DNA of 60,295 bases from assembly GCA_002477275.1 (NCBI GenBank), contig DLOU01000046.1:25046-85340 (forward strand), in the 5' to 3' direction. The translations under genes were made by a program, and so were the position numbers. Of the stretch, positions 1,057 to 13,612 are shown in pieces; the stretch's first letter is position 1, and every line of letters begins with the position of its first letter. This stretch comes from Bacillales bacterium UBA7476 (GTDB taxonomy: Bacteria > Bacillota_I > Bacilli_A > RF39 > UBA660). The notes beneath the pieces were generated by a model. The model was not told the origin of the DNA, did no database searches, and saw only the letters and a list, made by a program, of their open reading frames with translations.

Positions 1057-2070
1057 CTATCTTTCTAATATCCAATCTTGTAAATATTTAATTTTTGTTC
1101 CACAAAACTTACATTTACCAGTAGTTGCATCAATTGATGCTCCACAGTTTGGACACATAATAATATTCTTTCCTTCTTTTAATTCAAGTTTACCTTCTAT
1201 ATTTTTCTTCATAGTAAATGTATCTTTAATATATTTTGATTTTATTTTACCACTTTCGAAACTAATTATTCTTAACTCTATTTCAGTATCTACATATATA
1301 TTGTCATTTTTTTCATATTTGTTAAACGAATTATAATCAAGAATATCAAAATCAATTACATTTTCTTTTGTAAAATAGTACTTTTTAATTTCATAGTTTA
1401 AATTATTGAAAAATGTTTTTTTGTCTATTTGTGAAGTATCCCAAAATATTTTTTGTTTTTCATTTTCATTATCCTTATATCTTTTAATTGGTCCTAAAAT
1501 GATGTATGCATCAATAGTATAAAATAAATAGTATAAAATTAGTGAAAGAATAGCTCCATAAATAAATACTTTTGAAACATCATATGAATTAAATGTTCTA
1601 GATGTTGTTTTAATAAAAATAAAACTTATTATTAAACTTATTACTATATCTACTACTGCTGTTATTATTCTATAAGTAGTATTTCTTAATACTCTATCAT
1701 AGTGATATTTATTTCCTAATTCTTTATCTGTATAATCAATATTATAATATGTTCCACAATATGGGCATCCATCTAAAAAGTTTTCTATTTTAGCTTTTGC
1801 TCCACAGTTTGGACATATATTTTCTTTTTGTTCTTCTTCTTTTGATATAAAAGTATATTCTATTCTTGTATCAAAATCTTTTTCTTCGTGTTTTAATTGT
1901 CCATTTACATAGTACTTTTTTTCTAATCTTATACCTTTTTTAATATCATCGTTTTTTGAATTATCAGTGTTTCTTTCTAGAACTTCTCTATCAACAATAT
2001 ATTTGGTTTTAATGTTAATTTTATTTGAATCTAGTTTTTTCTTTTGATATTCTTCTGATATTAATGCCAT
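1057..2070 (-). CDS. membrane protein with two zinc ribbons flanking two TM helices; function unknown
   Basis: 337 aa. Zinc ribbons are CPNCGAKAKIENFLDGCPYCG and CPNCGASIDATTGKCKFCG. Hydrophobic segments are ITAVVDIVISLIISFIFI and VFIYGAILSLILYYLFY. Confidence 0.55.
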   Translation of the reverse strand: MALISEEYQKKKLDSNKINIKTKYIVDREVLERNTDNSKNDDIKKGIRLEKKYYVNGQLKHEEKDFDTRIEYTFISKEEEQKENICPNCGAKAKIENFLDGCPYCGTYYNIDYTDKELGNKYHYDRVLRNTTYRIITAVVDIVISLIISFIFIKTTSRTFNSYDVSKVFIYGAILSLILYYLFYTIDAYIILGPIKRYKDNENEKQKIFWDTSQIDKKTFFNNLNYEIKKYYFTKENVIDFDILDYNSFNKYEKNDNIYVDTEIELRIISFESGKIKSKYIKDTFTMKKNIEGKLELKEGKNIIMCPNCGASIDATTGKCKFCGTKIKYLQDWILER

Positions 2071-2081
2071 ACTACCACTTC

Positions 2082-2459
2082 CTATCTATTGTTGTTATTA
2101 TTGTTATTATTATTGTTATTATTATTGTTGTTGGAAGAACCACCTGAGTAACTGCTGTGGCTTCTACTTCCTCCCCCACTATAATGAATCGGTTCAATAT
2201 AGTGAGGATATACTTTTATTGAATCTTTTGTTAATAAAAGTCCATCAATACTAACAGATTTTCTTGTTAAAATGGTATCTTTTAAAATATCTCCATTATA
2301 TAAGGAAACACTAGTTGTTCCACCTTTTACTGTTCCATTATTTTTTACCCATTCATAGATTCTTTCTATTTCTTCTTTTGATAATTCATAGTACTTAGTT
2401 AGTTCTATACATCTTCTTTGTAAAATTAGTTCTTCATATGTTTCAGGTTCTTTATTCAT
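2082..2459 (-). CDS. small protein with a Gly/Ser/His/Tyr-rich tail ending in Asn15-Arg; translationally coupled to the radical SAM gene
   Basis: 125 aa. The tail is YPHYIEPIHYSGGGSRSHSSYSGGSS followed by N15 and R. Its start codon overlaps the radical SAM stop by 8 nt (ATGAATAA). Confidence 0.5.
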   Translation of the reverse strand: MNKEPETYEELILQRRCIELTKYYELSKEEIERIYEWVKNNGTVKGGTTSVSLYNGDILKDTILTRKSVSIDGLLLTKDSIKVYPHYIEPIHYSGGGSRSHSSYSGGSSNNNNNNNNNNNNNNNR

Positions 2460-4203
2460 TTTTTAACTCCTTATCTATATAATAAAATTCAATATTTTGA
2501 AATGGTAAATTAATCGCTTCTATATGATAATATGCATTGTTTTTTTGTTTTGTATAATGATAATCTCTTAATGCTGTTGTTGTGAAAAATAAATTGTTTG
2601 CTTTTTCTTTTGATATAAAATCTTTGTATTCTTTTATTTGATTAGTTATGTCATAGCAATAAAAATCTTTTTTATCTGATTTTGTATTATCTAGTACACC
2701 CTTATAAACTTGATGAGTCATTACATGTCTTTGCTTTGTTCTGTTCTCATCACCATATGTTACTAAATCTCCTGATAAAAGCATTATATATAATGCATTA
2801 TTCTCTGGATAATCACATTCTTCTTCTATTAAATTCTTTTTCATATATAATTTTACTTTTGAATTTGGTGTTATAAATACAAACTCTCTACTGTTTTTTA
2901 ATATTTGTGATTCAAGTTTATATTCTGTATTATCTACTTTTAATATAAATGAATCTTTATCATAGATGTATTTTAATTTAGGATCTTTATCTATTATTTC
3001 TTCAAGCGTCCCATTAATACTATCTTTCTTTTTTGGAACATATTTATCTAAATCTACTGTTCTCATTTTTGATAAATATTCGTATACAAATTCTTCATTG
3101 TATTCATCTTTTTGATAATTTCTATCTTTGTACATTTTTTGTTGAAGTAGACAAGTATAACTTTTATTTGTCTTGTATGTATTTTTTACAAACGGACAAC
3201 CTGTTTTACATAAGTATAAATATCCACATTTTGCACATTCTTCATTAAAACCTTCTTTATTATGATTCATAAATATCTTTTTTTGTGCTGTTTGTAAAAT
3301 CTTATCCACAGAATCTGTGTATATATTTCCATAATAATAGTCCTTTTGTTTCTGACCTCTAACGCAAGAATAAATATCCCCATTTTTTTCTAATAAGAAA
3401 AACTTTTCTCCACAGTTATCACAATTAGGACAATATCCTGGACCAAATTCATCAAACCATGCATTGTTTACTCCATAATCTAGGTCTGTTCCATCAAATT
3501 CTTTATGCATTCTATCATATAGTTCTAATTGTTCTTCTTCAGTAATATGATGAAGAATTCCACATGAATTATAGTCAAAACCTATCATAAAGTTGAAATC
3601 ATTCATATCAAGGCATGTATTTTTATTTAAATACTTTATATCTTCTACTATTTCATCTAATTTATTAAAATGTTCTTTAAATATAGTTGCAGATACTTTC
3701 TTTTTATTTGGTATATTCCTTAATAATTCAATATTTTTTAATATTCTATCAAGTGTTTTCTTATTACCTTTTGTAATCCTGTATTCATCATGAAGTGATA
3801 ATGGCAAATCTAGGCTTCCTGATATAGATACATTAAATTCTTTTATTGTATCTATATGTTTTTCTAAGTCATATAAATTTGTCTTTATGTGAGGATTTCC
3901 TATTTTGAAGCCACCTGATGTGATTATTTCTTTGTTTTTTTCGTAGTAATCACTTATAAATTTAATAATTTCTCTAAAATCATTTTTTGATAACGTTGTT
4001 ACTTCTCCACCATGTAGCGAAATATTAAATGGTATAACATTATTATCTTTTAGTTTATTTACTGCATATTCTAGTGTTTCTAGTGGACTATACTTTGTTT
4101 TTTCATCTTTTGTATTATCCTCTAAATAACAATATTTACAACACATATTACATGCCATTGTAGGTACATATAATAAATGAATATATTTATAATCTGTATT
4201 CAT
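2452..4203 (-). CDS. radical SAM / SPASM-domain enzyme with a ~230-aa C-terminal extension
   Basis: 583 aa. The CX3CX2C motif is at C18/C22/C25 (ACNMCCKYCY), with HGGEVT as the GGE-like motif. The SPASM signature is CGEKFFLLEKNGDIYSC (CX10GX4C) plus CAKCGYLYLCKTGC (CX2CX5CX3C) and a trailing Cys. Confidence 0.85.
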   Translation of the reverse strand: MNTDYKYIHLLYVPTMACNMCCKYCYLEDNTKDEKTKYSPLETLEYAVNKLKDNNVIPFNISLHGGEVTTLSKNDFREIIKFISDYYEKNKEIITSGGFKIGNPHIKTNLYDLEKHIDTIKEFNVSISGSLDLPLSLHDEYRITKGNKKTLDRILKNIELLRNIPNKKKVSATIFKEHFNKLDEIVEDIKYLNKNTCLDMNDFNFMIGFDYNSCGILHHITEEEQLELYDRMHKEFDGTDLDYGVNNAWFDEFGPGYCPNCDNCGEKFFLLEKNGDIYSCVRGQKQKDYYYGNIYTDSVDKILQTAQKKIFMNHNKEGFNEECAKCGYLYLCKTGCPFVKNTYKTNKSYTCLLQQKMYKDRNYQKDEYNEEFVYEYLSKMRTVDLDKYVPKKKDSINGTLEEIIDKDPKLKYIYDKDSFILKVDNTEYKLESQILKNSREFVFITPNSKVKLYMKKNLIEEECDYPENNALYIMLLSGDLVTYGDENRTKQRHVMTHQVYKGVLDNTKSDKKDFYCYDITNQIKEYKDFISKEKANNLFFTTTALRDYHYTKQKNNAYYHIEAINLPFQNIEFYYIDKELKNE

Positions 4204-4222: not shown

Positions 4223-4984
4223 TTATGGATATATAATTCCTGCGCTAGTTATATTATTGTAGTTATATTCTCCAAATGTTCCATAATAATTAATATTTGT
4301 TGGGCTTTCCTTAAATGCTCTTTCATTAACTGATACTCCTTGTGGTAAATTAATATTATATAGACTTGTACATTGTCTAAATGCAGATGAACCAATTTCT
4401 TTTAATTTGCTATTTTCTGATATATAAACTGTAGATAGACTTGAATCTCCATAGAATGCATGTCCACCAATTCTTGTTACAGAATCAGGTATATTTATAC
4501 TTCTTAGTGATGTGCAATATTCAAATGTATCTCCCCTTATTTCTGTTAATTTATCTCCCAATTCAACTGTTTCAAGTGATTTTGCATTATAAAATGCTTC
4601 TCCTCCAAGATGAACTAAGTTATTTGGTAGTTTAATTGATTTTAATGATGTTGCATTGTAGAATGCTCCTCCATCTATATAAGTAACTGTTTCTGGAATA
4701 TCTATTTCTTCTAATGATGTACAATTTTTAAATGCACTTCCTCCAAGTGATTGTAATTTTTTTGGTAATTTAACTTTTTTTAGTTTTGTATCATTTTTAA
4801 AAGCTTGTCCTCTTATTTCTGTTATTGAATCAGGCAGCGTAGCTTCTTCTAAATTTTTCATATTTGAAAAAGCATTTCCTCTTAAACTAACTACTTTTTC
4901 TCCTTTATATGTTTCTGGGATTGTTACAGTTTTATTGTTTGTTAAACCATAAGCATAGAATCTTACCCCATAACCGTTTGGCAT
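4223..4984 (-). CDS. leucine-rich-repeat protein (BspA-like LRR)
   Basis: 253 aa with about 8 repeats of the pattern LP..(L/V)..I(G/R)..AF..C.SL..I.IP. There is no signal peptide of its own. The start overlaps the upstream membrane-protein gene by 22 nt. Confidence 0.7.
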   Translation of the reverse strand: MPNGYGVRFYAYGLTNNKTVTIPETYKGEKVVSLRGNAFSNMKNLEEATLPDSITEIRGQAFKNDTKLKKVKLPKKLQSLGGSAFKNCTSLEEIDIPETVTYIDGGAFYNATSLKSIKLPNNLVHLGGEAFYNAKSLETVELGDKLTEIRGDTFEYCTSLRSINIPDSVTRIGGHAFYGDSSLSTVYISENSKLKEIGSSAFRQCTSLYNINLPQGVSVNERAFKESPTNINYYGTFGEYNYNNITSAGIIYP

Positions 4985-5949
4985 TTTTCATAAAGTATTT
5001 TGGGTTCATAGAAAATAATAAGTGGTAAAACAATTGCAATCACCATAGTTAAAATTCCAAGTAATTTACTGTAATCTTTTATTAAATTTTCTTTTGTAGA
5101 CATTACAATATTACTTATTTTTTCGTTAGGCCTTGCTTTTATTTCTTTTGATATTATTGATAGTATATTTACTTTTCTAGATAATATAAAAACAACCATT
5201 AATATTATTATCCCTATTACATATGTAGTTTTTGGAAAATGGAAGAATATTAGTGATATAAATGTAAATATTAATAAACTCATTATTGTATTAATAATAA
5301 TTCTCTTTTTCTGAAGTTCTTTTGTAGTAAAACTTCTAAGTGAAGATAATCCTTCTTTCTTTAACTCTCTATTTACAAATTCTTCTATCATTTTTTCTTC
5401 TGATAAGCTATACATTGAATCATAATCTTTAATTGTTGATGGTAATCTAGATATTAATACTTTGATTTTTTGTGGTTCTACTGGTTTTCCACAAATTGGG
5501 CAAAATTTATCTGTTTCTTTGATTGCTGCTGAACAATTCTGACATTTTAATGCTTTTTCTGCTTCTGTTAGAGGTTTAATAGGAATTACTGATATACTTT
5601 CTCTTTCTTTTTCTCCTGCACCGGTTATTGCTTCTATCATTGAAATTATTGTTGGTACAACAAATATAGATATAAAATCAATAATTACAGCTGTATCTTC
5701 AATGATACTATACAATATCCATAACAAAACAAATTTTCCAATTAATATAAGACAGAATATACCTTTTTGATTTCCTCCATTACTTAAAATTCTTGAAAGT
5801 GGGATTATAACAAAGGGTATTTCTATAATTGTAATAACTATTTCCATGGCTATCATTCCAGAAATATCTGTTTGACCTGGGGCAGATTCTGCAAAAACTG
5901 TTAATGGTATTAATAATAACAAAAATAATAATAAACTTCTTTTTTTCAT
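4963..5949 (-). CDS. polytopic membrane protein with signal peptide and internal zinc ribbon
   Basis: 328 aa. The signal-like N-terminus is [20 protein letters not shown]. There are several hydrophobic helices and a zinc ribbon CQNCSAAIKETDKFCPICG. Confidence 0.5.
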   Translation of the reverse strand: MKKRSLLLFLLLLIPLTVFAESAPGQTDISGMIAMEIVITIIEIPFVIIPLSRILSNGGNQKGIFCLILIGKFVLLWILYSIIEDTAVIIDFISIFVVPTIISMIEAITGAGEKERESISVIPIKPLTEAEKALKCQNCSAAIKETDKFCPICGKPVEPQKIKVLISRLPSTIKDYDSMYSLSEEKMIEEFVNRELKKEGLSSLRSFTTKELQKKRIIINTIMSLLIFTFISLIFFHFPKTTYVIGIIILMVVFILSRKVNILSIISKEIKARPNEKISNIVMSTKENLIKDYSKLLGILTMVIAIVLPLIIFYEPKILYEKCQTVMG

Positions 5950-5987
5950 ATTCTTATCCTTTCAAATTATCATATTATTATATTTTG

Positions 5988-5996
5988 ATTATAACA
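5988..5996 (-). promoter_or_regulatory. extended -10 element TGTTATAAT upstream of the 5949->241 operon
   Basis: The minus strand reads TGTTATAAT about 40 nt upstream of the ATG at 5949, immediately after the terminator of the sigma gene. Confidence 0.4.
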
Positions 5997-6004
5997 TATT
6001 TTAA

Positions 6005-6031
6005 GATAAAAAAAGAGCTCTTTTAAGCTCT
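6005..6031 (-). terminator. rho-independent terminator of the giant sigma gene
   Basis: A 6-bp stem AGAGCT/AGCTCT starts right after the stop codon at 6032 and is followed by a U-run on the minus strand. Confidence 0.6.
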
Positions 6032-9000
6032 TTAATCATTATATTTATAAAACTTTTTTCTTCTAGTTATTTCTTTGATTATAGATTCTACTTTTCCTGT
6101 TTTGTTAGAACTATCCATTACTTCTTTTAAAAGTTTATCTCCTTGATCATAGTATTCCGATTTATATAAGTATTTACATAGTTTTAATTTTATAATTTGT
6201 TTTTCTGTTTCAGAAATATCTAACTCATCTAATTCATAATCTATATTTTTATTTTGAAGTATTAAACCAAAAAATTTATTATAATCAATTTGAACTTTAT
6301 TTTGCTTTTTTACTTCTATTTCTTCTTGTGGTTTAATTTTTTGAATTTCCTCTTGTATTTCTGTCTCTTTTGTTTCAGTAAAACTATCAAGTTTTTTCTT
6401 AATAAGTGTAATTAGGAAATCTAGTTCTATATTTTTCAAAAAGTCAAGGTCATTATATTTACTTAATTCATTAGAAATACTAATATAATCTTTTGCTTTT
6501 TCTCTTAAATTGTTATTCTCATCCATAAGTGATACATAACATACTCCAATCATGTAATAAACATCAGTATTATTTATGTATTTATCTTCTCTTAATGATA
6601 ATAGTTTTTTTAGTGCTTCACTAAAGTCATGATTATTATAATCTTCTTTTGCTCTTAAGAATAATTCATCTTCATTTTCAGATGGTTTTTCATTAAATTT
6701 TCTTACCACTAACTTCTTATCTTTATCACCAACAAAAATCACCTTAATATTATGATCTTTAACTAATTTTTCTTTTGCTTTTATTAAATTACTATTATTA
6801 TCATCTATAATTATAAGTTCATTATCAGTTAAATCATTATAATTACTGCTTTCAAGATTAACGTTTTCTAGAATGTTTTCAAATTCTAATAACCTGTTAT
6901 TTTTTAATTCATATCTTAATACTTTTTTTCTCTTATATATTTCTTCTATATTACCTTTTAATAAACATTCTTCGTTTAGAGAGTCTATATTTAGAATGAT
7001 ATTTAAACATATTTCACTTAGTTCTATATCGTTATCCATTAATGATTTATAAAATTTTTGAACAATTTCTGCAAGAAGTAAATTTAAATTTGGCTTTTGA
7101 ATGCTTGCTAAAAACATTAGTGGACTAGTATAATTATTGTCTTCTTCTAAAATTGATGTTCTAATCAAATTTAACGCTAAGTCAAAATATTCGTTTTTAT
7201 TATTTTGATTTAAATATCTTTTTATTTCTAATAAACCATTTTCTAGGTCATTATTAGATAGATAAATCGCTATATCTTGAAAGTTCGTATTATCTTTTAC
7301 TTCTTCCTCTTGACTTTTTTCTTTTATTTTTATTTCTCTTAGTAATATTTCTATTATATCCTTTTTGTTTTTTTGTTCTTTTAATGTATTTAAAGCTTCT
7401 AATATATTATTGTCATATATTAATAAACGTATATTATTATCATTATTATCTTCTAAACTTTTTATTTCATTTACATTAAATAATTTTACTTTTTCTTTAT
7501 ACTCTTTAGGGAGTTCATATACTTTTGAAATAAGTAAAAGTATTAAATTATAATAATGTTTTTCATTTTCTTCAGTATTGCCTATTAATAAATCTAAATA
7601 TTTTAGTGTTTGTTCATATTTTTTGTTCTTAATACTATCTTCTAATAAATAATCATTAACTTCTATATTTTTTGGATCTATTTTGTAGCATTTATCTAAT
7701 ATTTTACTTGCAAATACTTTTTGTCCTTCTCTTAGCATTCCATTATATAATTCTAAAAGAAGTTCTACTTTACTACTTGATATTTCGTAAATACCATTAT
7801 TTAGAGTAAGATAATTATTATTTATTAGATAGTCTAATGTTTCTTTTCCTACTTCAGACAAATCTTTTTCTGTTAAATTATCACCCATGCAGAATGCTAA
7901 AAAGATTTTCTTTATGGTTATTCTTTGTTTTATTTCTTCCTCTTTTTCTCTTGCTAAAATTAAATTGTTATTCTCTTCTCTTTGATTTTCTAGTCTTTTT
8001 TTAAGGGTTATTGATAACAGATTTCTAATATATTTTTTTTCATCTATAGATATATCTTTTTTTATAACTGGATTATGTAAGTCTTTTCCATAGTAATCAT
8101 GTAATTTAATAAACTGATTATTGTTAAGCCCTTTTATTACATAGTCAACTTCTTTTTCTGAATATCCATAAGCTTTGAAATAATCATAAATATTGTCTGT
8201 GTTAGAATATTTTTTTACTTTTTTATCTTGTTTTATTCTTTTTAATTTGTTCTTTATAGTTAACGTTACAAGATTTCTAAGTTGTAATTCTTCTTTATTA
8301 CTTTTTTTGATTACTTTAGTACTTTTGTAATCCTCTCCGTAATATGTTTTCAATATTTCTTTTTGGTTTCCTGTCAAACTATTTAGTACTTCTTTTATTT
8401 CATCTTCTGTAAAACCATATGCAAAACAATATTCATATAGGTTTTTTATTGAAATTCTTTGTCTTTCTTTAGCATTATTATGTTCTTTTGTATCAGGCTT
8501 TTTTTCTATATTTCTACTTTTTTCTAGTTTTTTCATTAAATTAACACATAAAAGATTTCTAACACGTATTTTGTCGTTTTTACTTATTTTATCATTTATA
8601 ATAGGATGCTCTAAATCTTTTCCATAGTATAAAATAAGTAATTCTCTTTGATTATCATTTAAATTATCTAATACTTTATTAACTTCTTCTTTTGTATATC
8701 CATGAAACTCAAAATATTCATATATATTATTTATAGATGCTCTCTTTTTAGTGCTTACAGTTTCACTATTTTCTTTTAAATGTTTTATTTTTTGCTTTAA
8801 AGTACCTGTTACTAAATTTTTAATATATTTTTTATCATTTGAATCTATTTGATCATTAATAATGGGATGTTCTAAATCTTTTCCATAATACAAATATAAT
8901 TTTTCTAATTGTTTTTCATTTAGACTATTTAATAAATTATTAATTTCTTCTTTTGTATATCCATAATTCATAAAATACTCATATATGTTATTTATATTAT

Positions 9001-12780: not shown

Positions 12781-13612
12781 GTTTTTCTATTAAATCTATT
12801 GTTTCATAAATACTATCAGATACAGAAATAGATTTGTTTTTTATTTCTTTTGGTACTTCTGAATATTTATCGTTAAATCTCACTAATTTAAAATTATCAT
12901 GTAAAAATGTTAATTCTTCAAAAGGGAATCTAATTATTCCTGGTGTATTAAATCCTATTCCAAATTCTAATAGCAATACTTTATTATCAATATTTTCTTC
13001 AATAAAATTATAATATTCTTCTTTCATTTTGTGCCAGTTATCATCTTCTACAAATGTATCATCACATCTTAAATTTACAGACATATTTTTTCCACACACA
13101 GGACATTTTGGTACTAATTCTGTCGGAATTTTCAAATTATCATCTATATTATTTAACATCTCATATACTTGTTCTTCATTATCGTATAGCTTGTTATGAC
13201 ATGGCTTACAGCATTGTAATTTAGAATAACTTCCTTGCACTTCAAATACCTTAGATTTATCAAAACCATTATTAATAAACTGACCATCAGTATTAGTTGT
13301 TATTACAAAATATGTTTTATCTTTTACTAGCTCAAATAACTTCTTATATAATTCGGTATGTTTTCTTTCATAATACGAAAAGAATATATGTTTTGCCCAA
13401 TATGCCCATTTTTCTTCTTCTGTTTTAAATGGATAAAACGATGAAGTATATAAATCAGTTATTTTATATTTATTAATAAAATCTTTAAAATCATTTTCAA
13501 ATTTTTCTCCACTATAATGAATACCGGCTGCATCTGATAGTCCTGCTCCTGCACCAATTATTATTACATCTGATTCATCTAACCATTCTTTAATTTTTAC
13601 TATATCTGTCAT
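12770..13612 (-). CDS. Sir2-family protein, macrodomain-linked (class M-like) sirtuin
   Basis: 280 aa. Motifs are IIGAGAGLS (GAGxS), TTNTDGQ (TQNxD-like) and two CxxC pairs (CKPC, CPVC). VQGS has Gln where canonical sirtuins have the catalytic His-Gly. The start lies 9 nt after the macro gene stop (TAAGGAGAAAATATG). Confidence 0.8.
   Translation of the reverse strand: MTDIVKIKEWLDESDVIIIGAGAGLSDAAGIHYSGEKFENDFKDFINKYKITDLYTSSFYPFKTEEEKWAYWAKHIFFSYYERKHTELYKKLFELVKDKTYFVITTNTDGQFINNGFDKSKVFEVQGSYSKLQCCKPCHNKLYDNEEQVYEMLNNIDDNLKIPTELVPKCPVCGKNMSVNLRCDDTFVEDDNWHKMKEEYYNFIEENIDNKVLLLEFGIGFNTPGIIRFPFEELTFLHDNFKLVRFNDKYSEVPKEIKNKSISVSDSIYETIDLIEKLKK

Follow-up and report, generated by a model that had tools for sequence, protein, structure and literature searches.

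What is the role of a 125-residue protein that ends in 15 asparagines and one arginine, and that is encoded directly behind a radical S-adenosylmethionine (rSAM) enzyme? The question is raised by two overlapping genes in a 60,295-nucleotide stretch of Bacillales bacterium UBA7476 (contig DLOU01000046.1, positions 25,046 to 85,340; hereafter the window), whose 1.74-Mb genome assembly has a GC content of 25.8%. We consider that the small protein is probably a dedicated substrate of the upstream rSAM/SPASM enzyme, which would recognize and modify its oligo-Asn C-terminus. The two genes and their parts are as follows (AF2, AlphaFold2; ORF, open reading frame; pLDDT, predicted local distance difference test).

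2452..4203, minus strand: gene of the 583-aa radical SAM/SPASM enzyme (Pfam Radical_SAM, Fer4_12 and SPASM above their cut-offs)
2455..3150, minus strand: enzyme residues 352-583, a helical linker and a family-specific beta-sandwich (AF2 model, invariant columns)
2082..2459, minus strand: gene of the Asn-tailed protein, a 125-aa ORF with an ATG start and a TAG stop at 2082-2084
2190..2459, minus strand: residues 1-90 of the small protein, a folded alpha2-beta5 domain, the putative carrier (AF2, conservation)
2085..2189, minus strand: residues 91-125, a disordered Ser/Gly/Tyr-rich tail with the end SGGSS-N15-R (pLDDT, alignment)
2088..2132, minus strand: 15 Asn codons, AAT and AAC mixed, the proposed recognition/modification site (codon and ORF counts)

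An earlier note on this DNA had described a low-complexity tail closed by N15 and then R, and translation matches it exactly: ...VYPHYIEPIHYSGGGSRSHSSYSGGSS is followed by 15 Asn and by an Arg, whose codon lies at 2085-2087 between the run and the TAG. The note had named no strand; both genes lie on the minus strand. The overlap of the ATG with the rSAM stop codon, also claimed there, is borne out. The two ORFs share 8 nt, the coding strand reading AAA AAT GAA TAA at the end of the rSAM gene and ATG AAT AAA at the start of the small gene, and an AAGGAG Shine-Dalgarno sequence is found at 2467-2472, 7 nt 5′ of the ATG and within the end of the rSAM gene. The whole genome has 4744 stop-to-stop ORFs that reach 60 aa or more; of these, the small protein is the only one that ends in four or more Asn, and its N15 is the longest Asn run in the genome. 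The only other long run, an N14 near base 13435 of the plus strand of contig C39, outside the window, is internal to a 533-aa ORF (...SSPGS-N14-DNSKEE...) and not C-terminal.

The small-protein family comprises 99 homologous proteins (about 100 close ones) and, when grouped at 50% identity, 113 clusters from public genomic and metagenomic data. Almost all members have a length of 105-135 aa and come from uncultured gut/rumen Bacilli, under labels such as ‘Tenericutes’, ‘Mycoplasma sp. CAG’ and ‘Clostridium sp. CAG’, while some are found in cultured Lachnospiraceae of the genus Waltera. The earlier note had named homologues without the tail as a finding that would count against its proposals; instead, the ending [G/S]-S-S-N(7-20)-X is kept in about 130 homologues, even at 30% identity and 50% GC. 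In a 131-member alignment with a mean column identity of merely 28%, G107, S109, S110 and N111-117 are each at least 90% conserved, and the tail is thus the most conserved part of an otherwise fast-diverging protein. The N-terminal part carries the motif (M)NKEPETYEELI..KRC..LTKYY, and T7, Y8, E10, Y35 and L38 are nearly invariant in the same alignment. Over 80 genome loci, identity to relatives is 66-89% for the enzyme and 35-58% for the small protein.

A branch at 23-42% identity shows which features of the tail are kept. Its members have lost the Cys, the PHY motif and most tail aromatics, and still end GG(S)SS-N(7-12)-X, the last residue being H, G, N, S or A; examples are ...IERPIRTSGDGDGGASG-N11-A and ...ASHYSSSSSGSSS-N11-H. 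PHY and [YWFH]SGG are common in close relatives and lost or replaced in this branch, whereas GxSS-N(n) is present throughout. The earlier note had singled out an aromatic-x-Ser tail. The G-x-S-S and the Asn run stand as kept features of the tail, but the HYS, HSS and YSG triplets are not conserved in distant members.

The codons of the run were compared over 78 loci, in which it is 10-20 Asn long and the genomes range from 21 to 50% GC. In total, 631 AAT and 397 AAC codons are interspersed, and the terminal Arg is encoded by six different codons (AGA, AGG, CGA, CGT, CGG and CGC). Because AAT and AAC are mixed, the GC content spans this range and all six Arg codons occur, the codons show that the tail is under selection at the protein level and is not a product of replication slippage. 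The small protein has no genuine match in Pfam, NCBIfam, PHROGs or PADLOC, its PRC2_EED_ins matches were rejected as low-complexity artefacts of the tail, and a search of the ESM Atlas gave no usable match.

The pairing of the two genes holds in both directions. Among the 80 genome loci, which were collected with the small protein as query, the rSAM gene lies directly upstream in 78. In the reverse test, 80 metagenome loci were found from the C-terminal domain of the enzyme (about 1636 proteins match this domain, of which the best 120 were viewed); 74 of them include enough downstream DNA, and in all 74 the next gene after the rSAM gene is an Asn-tailed ORF of about 120 aa, although three of these loci are readable only with TGA as a sense codon (see below). 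A small protein found mostly away from an rSAM gene, the other outcome that the earlier note had set against its proposals, is therefore not what these genomes hold.

By its profile matches, the enzyme belongs to the radical SAM/SPASM superfamily: PF04055 scores 43.3 bits (cut-off 29.5), PF13186 25.3 (21.5) and TIGR04085 46.2 (27). Its CX3CX2C cluster motif is C18/C22/C25 with no domain before it, in agreement with the earlier statement that the motif begins at residue 18 without an N-terminal RiPP recognition element (RRE; RiPP, peptide synthesized by the ribosome and modified post-translationally). The SPASM elements in the translation are C-x15-C (containing GDIYSC), CAKCGYLYLCKTGC and a later Cys. 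In the NCBIfam search, DynA (92 bits) and anSME (91 bits) score highest, with PapB and further peptide maturases behind them. All of the best profile matches are peptide or protein maturases and all lie far below the family cut-offs, and on these scores the enzyme belongs to none of the named maturase families. Those for AmcB, GrrM/OscB, YhhB, FxsB and HxsB are 63.6, 56.1, 55.5, 31.6 and 61 bits, against cut-offs of 425, 310, 445, 370 and 370. The idea that the tail triplets are joined into three-residue cyclophanes thus loses its footing, since the triplets lack conservation and the enzyme falls far short of the cut-off of every cyclophane family.

Residues 352-583 of the enzyme, modelled with 53 homologues, fold with a mean AF2 pLDDT of 82.6 and contain the invariant motifs YGDE.R.K and TT..LR..HY.KQ..NA.YH...NLPF. 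As modelled, this extra domain does not look like an RRE. Its structural matches are merely generic beta-sandwiches with Z ≤ 7.1 (UNC119/RhoGDI/TEAD-like, phage Chi tail tip), and no function was read from them. Among PDB sequences, phmmer found no match and the family profile retrieved only the rSAM domain of ChlB (E 0.0017).

A second carrier of such a tail is found in Campylobacter phages. The window enzyme matches phrog_1802 at E 1.3e-42, residues 13-582 aligning with positions 49-555 of the 556-position profile (PHROGs gives no curated cut-off for this match), and a Campylobacter member, aligned by BLASTP over residues 10-578, is 34% identical to it (E 7e-102); on these alignments, it is of the same family as the phrog_1802 radical SAM proteins. 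Searches by tblastn of plasmids and of phages found one full-length relative in each collection, namely in a Mu-like prophage borne on a Campylobacter coli megaplasmid and in Campylobacter phage CAM-P21, both 34% identical over all domains, C-terminal motifs included. The phage gene order is tail fibre (H-fibre), 211-aa chaperone, rSAM, 128-aa DUF1353 protein, 334-aa fibre-like protein and tail sheath. The H-fibre is the receptor-binding protein of CJIE1-type prophages and has 320-435 aa. As translated from the C. coli prophage and CAM-P21, the fibre genes end ...YAPSGSTNNNNY. At nine further IMG/VR loci, the fibre ends ...LGSSNNNNY, ...SGATNNNNY or ...S[NSG]STNNNNY wherever the rSAM gene is intact, and the Asn-ended fibres carry at least three different C-terminal bodies. 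Two loci end otherwise: in the Campylobacter-type prophages UViG_647000224_000001 (L138) and UViG_2885591908_000002 (L140), the fibre ends ...MGNNF or ...MGNNS rather than [S/T]NNNNY, and a frameshift interrupts the rSAM gene, near residue 140 in L138 and near residue 545 in L140. This is the pattern that a substrate-enzyme pair predicts, as judged from gene sequences of few independent lineages. A phrog_1802 search over 400 genomes retrieved mostly generic rSAM/SPASM enzymes at profile positions of about 40-410 and is uninformative for the association. A literature search found no published function for the Campylobacter phage rSAM.

In the window and its related loci, the two genes belong to a larger unit, in the order transmembrane/zinc-ribbon/leucine-rich repeat (LRR) protein, rSAM, small protein and zinc-ribbon membrane protein. 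The outer two genes are:

4223..5949, minus strand: polytopic membrane protein with a zinc ribbon and BspA-type LRRs, first cassette gene (split ORFs 4963-5949 and 4223-4984)
1057..2070, minus strand: 337-aa membrane protein with two zinc ribbons, fourth cassette gene (in 76 of 80 loci)

The LRR gene is found upstream of the rSAM gene, and the double-zinc-ribbon gene downstream of the small gene, in 76 of the 80 genome loci each. Since no other flanking gene family is common to more than 11 of these loci, the system is, by gene order, a self-contained four-gene cassette. In roughly 90% of loci the small gene ends in TAG, even at about 25% GC. This TAG lies in the Shine-Dalgarno sequence (AGR-TAG-GAG/GTG) of the zinc-ribbon gene that starts 8-12 nt downstream (window positions 2075-2087, and related junctions), which accounts for the near-universal stop codon, and three cassette genes are therefore translationally chained. 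PADLOC defence models gave only a weak, generic rSAM match to pVip (29 bits) among the cassette proteins, and none for the small protein or the LRR protein.

From the constant adjacency of the genes, the conservation of the tail and its recurrence in the phages, we strongly infer that the small protein is a substrate. The tail itself would be the site of modification, because only the C-terminal [S/T]-Asn run and the enzyme family are common to the small protein and the fibre. The candidate substrate proposed in the earlier note thus survives with regard to tail and adjacency, but with G-x-S-S and the Asn run, not the aromatic triplets, as the conserved element. In the mechanism that we propose, the small protein and the enzyme would be produced together through translational coupling. 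Residues 1-90 would serve as a small folded carrier that may also help in docking, and residues 91-125 as a flexible tail, of which Gly/Ser, Ser-Ser, 7-20 Asn and at most one further residue would be the recognized and modified end. The free C-terminus may thread into the active site, and the beta-sandwich domain, with its invariant Arg/Lys/His/Tyr/Asn motifs, may help to hold it in place of an RRE. A 5′-deoxyadenosyl radical would then abstract a hydrogen from a C-alpha or C-beta of the tail. With regard to the chemistry and to the cellular role of the product, we can only guess: the outcome might be epimerization to D-Asn or a cross-link with the conserved Ser/Thr before the run, and the two zinc-ribbon membrane proteins of the cassette might be partners of the product. 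That the run varies in length would fit repeated or end-directed chemistry better than a single fixed macrocycle.

A broader reading, to which we give even chances, is that these genes represent a new modification system, in which an rSAM/SPASM enzyme with a beta-sandwich docking domain recognizes and alters a portable [Ser/Thr]-oligoAsn-COOH tag. If so, D-Asn or Ser/Thr-to-Asn cross-links could harden a protein end or make it sticky, and the same tag-enzyme pair would serve phage receptor-binding fibres and a mobile cassette of gut Firmicutes and of bacteria that use genetic code 25.

One locus has a bearing on the substrate role through gene copy number. CAKPRZ010000001.1 (L047) contains two Asn-tailed gene copies, at 2-244 and 6001-6366, about 4.7 kb apart. 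The copy in the canonical place before the zinc-ribbon gene has a long GGS/F-rich tail with just N5-R, and the orphan copy has N12-R and is followed by a gene for a secreted repeat protein. Since multiple precursor copies are typical of substrates, the extra orphan copy counts for a substrate, and as a gene arrangement it fits a precursor better than an enzyme subunit.

Several observations weigh against a modified substrate. Covalent modification is inferred here from gene linkage, and the length of the Asn run varies (7-20, and 4 in the phages), which is odd for a site-specific cross-link. No protease or exporter gene belongs to the cassette in the 80 loci. A common gut allele, a 105-aa form of the small protein (P0080) shortened by a TAA, occurs on 49 contigs with an adjoining rSAM gene that looks intact. 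In one such locus, Clostridium sp. CAG:465 (FR891236.1, small gene 5939-6256), the in-frame TAA stands directly before an intact S-N13-R-TAG, and the form could reflect a recent nonsense allele, an assembly error that recurs, or readthrough of the stop codon. The phage gene next after the rSAM encodes the DUF1353 protein, which has no Asn tail, and gene order alone therefore does not identify the substrate. Finally, pyocins retargeted with CJIE1 H-fibre C-terminal domains are active without the rSAM, with at most the chaperone co-expressed, and the publication makes no mention of the rSAM (PMC11464564). Because these constructs work without the enzyme, any modification of the fibre would not be essential for binding the receptor protein MOMP.

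Some of these points are shared by the first of the alternatives, namely that the Asn tail is functional but unmodified, acting as a prion-like or self-assembling element or as a sorting or degradation tag, while the rSAM acts on a small molecule or lipid. The Ser/Gly/Tyr/Asn composition resembles that of self-associating low-complexity domains, and a run of 7-20 Asn, the lack of a RiPP-style protease or exporter, and the H-fibre constructs that work without the rSAM (PMC11464564) would all agree with it. We regard it as unlikely. It leaves unexplained why the enzyme family travels with [S/T]-Asn(n) ends on two unrelated carriers, and why the enzyme is decayed where the run is lost; furthermore, the enzyme has the full SPASM architecture with two auxiliary clusters that is typical of peptide and protein maturases, and its best profile matches are all maturases of these kinds.

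The second alternative casts the small protein as an accessory subunit of the rSAM, i.e. a chaperone, adaptor or recognition partner like PqqD or MftB, whose Asn tail docks onto the beta-sandwich while the real substrate is, for example, the LRR protein or the 337-aa zinc-ribbon protein. The 90-aa domain is indeed well folded, and the gene is translationally coupled on both sides. In the AF2 model, built with the 131-sequence alignment, pLDDT is about 93 over residues 11-80 (block values of 93-95) for two helices followed by five strands, and falls to 47-56 in the disordered tail from about residue 91. In addition, the same place in Campylobacter prophages is taken by the 128-aa DUF1353 protein (annotated as a tail assembly chaperone) and then the 334-aa fibre-like protein, sizes near the 125 and 337 aa of the window. 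However, BLASTP finds no similarity between the small protein and the DUF1353 protein or between the 337-aa protein and the fibre-like protein. The earlier note had also considered a stand-alone RRE/PqqD-like domain in the N-terminal ~85 aa, and comparison of the model with such folds gives this no support: the confident alpha2-beta5 order is unlike that of a PqqD-type RRE (a three-stranded sheet, then three helices), and PqqD (PF05402) has no match at E ≤ 1 in the window protein or at E ≤ 0.1 in any of the 131 family members. For the N-domain, nothing significant came from Foldseek against PDB, from the exhaustive VIA-align wide search (best Z 3.7) or from BFVD, and no RRE is among the structure matches listed, although such lists do not exclude a fold. 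Moreover, in the phages it is the tail fibre, a structural protein rather than an adaptor, that bears the Asn tail, no further protein of the cassette or genome has such a tail, and the small protein far outpaces the enzyme in its evolution, which is usual for substrates and precursors. An accessory subunit is, in our estimate, distinctly improbable.

That the run is slippage debris of an AT-rich genome beside an rSAM gene through mere operon packing, as the 25.8% GC, the capacity of AAT homopolymers to expand and the differing run lengths among relatives might suggest, is effectively excluded, on the sequences compared, by its presence at up to 50% GC, its AAC interruptions, its standing as the sole such C-terminus in 4744 ORFs, and its retention both in a code-25 host and in about 130 homologues with identities as low as 30%.

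How a modified Asn tail would relate to known systems can be judged by comparison. Like the window enzyme, anSME (TIGR03942) has a full SPASM domain and no N-terminal RRE, acts on a protein, and its profile aligns end to end with the catalytic part (rSAM residues 15-359 with positions 8-351 of 363); most tblastn matches in plasmids outside the phrog_1802-type family are also annotated as anSME. However, the window enzyme reaches 90.9 bits where the cut-off is 349.45, it has an additional 230-aa linker and beta-sandwich domain, the tail lacks the C/S-x-P/A-x-R sulfatase motif, and no sulfatase gene is nearby. Nor was anSME retrieved by the family profile search of PDB sequences at E ≤ 0.01. DynA (NF041298), the best NCBIfam match, aligns over rSAM residues 14-358 (92 bits, cut-off 450), and the darobactin maturase (NF038005) reaches 64.7 bits against 650. 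Dynobactin chemistry includes a C-C bond to an Asn beta-carbon, i.e. rSAM/SPASM enzymes can attack Asn. DynA and DarE act on short secreted Trp peptides, whereas the present carriers are a 125-aa protein or a fibre with unconserved Trp and a homopolymeric C-terminus.

The phrog_1802 system is of the same enzyme family, sharing the full-length architecture at 34% identity, the invariant C-terminal motifs and a neighbour that ends in [S/T]-Asn-run-X; it differs in its carrier (a 320-435-aa fibre), its run (four Asn and a Tyr), its tail-module neighbours and its lack of zinc-ribbon membrane proteins. MftC/MftA and PqqE/PqqA likewise encode a dedicated ribosomal product beside a SPASM enzyme, and in mycofactocin the modification is at the extreme C-terminus of the precursor. 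MftC and PqqE, however, need a PqqD-type RRE (MftB or PqqD) and use precursors of 20-30 aa, whereas the window has no detectable RRE and a folded 90-aa domain; mycofactocin TIGR03962 scores 32 bits against the window enzyme (cut-off 265). Precursors of the proteusin/NHLP type (PoyD type) and YydG offer an analogy in which a large conserved N-terminal region precedes a C-terminal core, as in the small protein. PoyD-type and YydG epimerases carry out repeated rSAM modification, Asn included, and are a plausible model for action on a homopolymer. The N-domain of the small protein, however, has no similarity in sequence or fold to NHLP/Nif11 leaders, and the enzyme gives no epimerase-family signal. 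Precedents for SPASM enzymes that act on folded proteins, and not only on short RiPP peptides, are QhpD and a thioether cross-linker of a methanogen protein (PMC13692751). QhpD TIGR03906 matches the window enzyme weakly (49 bits), and both precedents form Cys thioethers, whereas the tail is free of Cys and distant members do not conserve Cys17 of the N-domain.

Our literature search found no paper that connects an rSAM enzyme with oligo-Asn C-termini or with these tail fibres, and no description of a tail-enzyme system for the CJIE1 H-fibre. Nitrilobacillin, whose C-terminal nitrile is made by an AS-like enzyme, is an unrelated case. Much new peptide chemistry comes from rSAM/SPASM maturases, and their known substrates are short leader-dependent peptides or specific enzymes. 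Here, a compact, sequence-defined C-terminal tag (Ser/Thr and an Asn run) co-occurs with one enzyme family on unrelated carriers. It offers a testable substrate-enzyme pair that may reveal new asparagine chemistry, possibly as a portable tag for protein engineering, and it may explain both a widespread accessory cassette of uncultured human and animal gut bacteria and a hitherto unexplained Campylobacter prophage gene.

The spread of the cassette is uneven. It was found in three of the four other searched genomes of the genus, in one other genus when 24 genomes of the family were searched, and, in a sample of 399 genomes of the class, in two of 49 family members and nowhere else. Because this distribution is patchy and yet crosses into Lachnospiraceae, the cassette behaves, by its occurrence, as a mobile accessory module.

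In the window, the first cassette gene is split. It is a single ORF of 530-650 aa in relatives, and the split results from one base missing from an A-run near 4975-4985; the junction reads GAAAAATGCC, and the in-frame reading would need six A. This is either a real frameshift, which would leave an LRR part without a membrane anchor, or a homopolymer assembly error. A short-chain dehydrogenase/reductase (SDR) gene at 241-1041 closes what appears to be a six-gene operon. It was rejected as part of the cassette, being absent from the 80 related loci save for one weak, distant match, and is a local passenger.

A complete cassette also lies near the end of a contig classed as viral (IMG/VR UViG_3300029664_000120, 44.9 kb, GC 0.46; L098/L131). 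Its LRR part is a separate 385-aa ORF, and the nearby ORFs match just a phage-type repressor and PHROGs of no assigned function.

The three metagenome loci with in-frame TGA codons (JAEEGI010021369.1, Ga0247608_10002278 and Ga0247609_10002036; L213-L215) have six of them in the rSAM gene, 17 in the LRR gene and two in the small gene. Because TGA aligns to Gly in 13 of 16 cases, among them invariant Gly residues in the rSAM and the IDG that is invariant in the small protein, the host reads TGA as Gly, i.e. uses genetic code 25 as in Absconditabacteria/Gracilibacteria. The small protein of these loci retains an intact N17-R tail.

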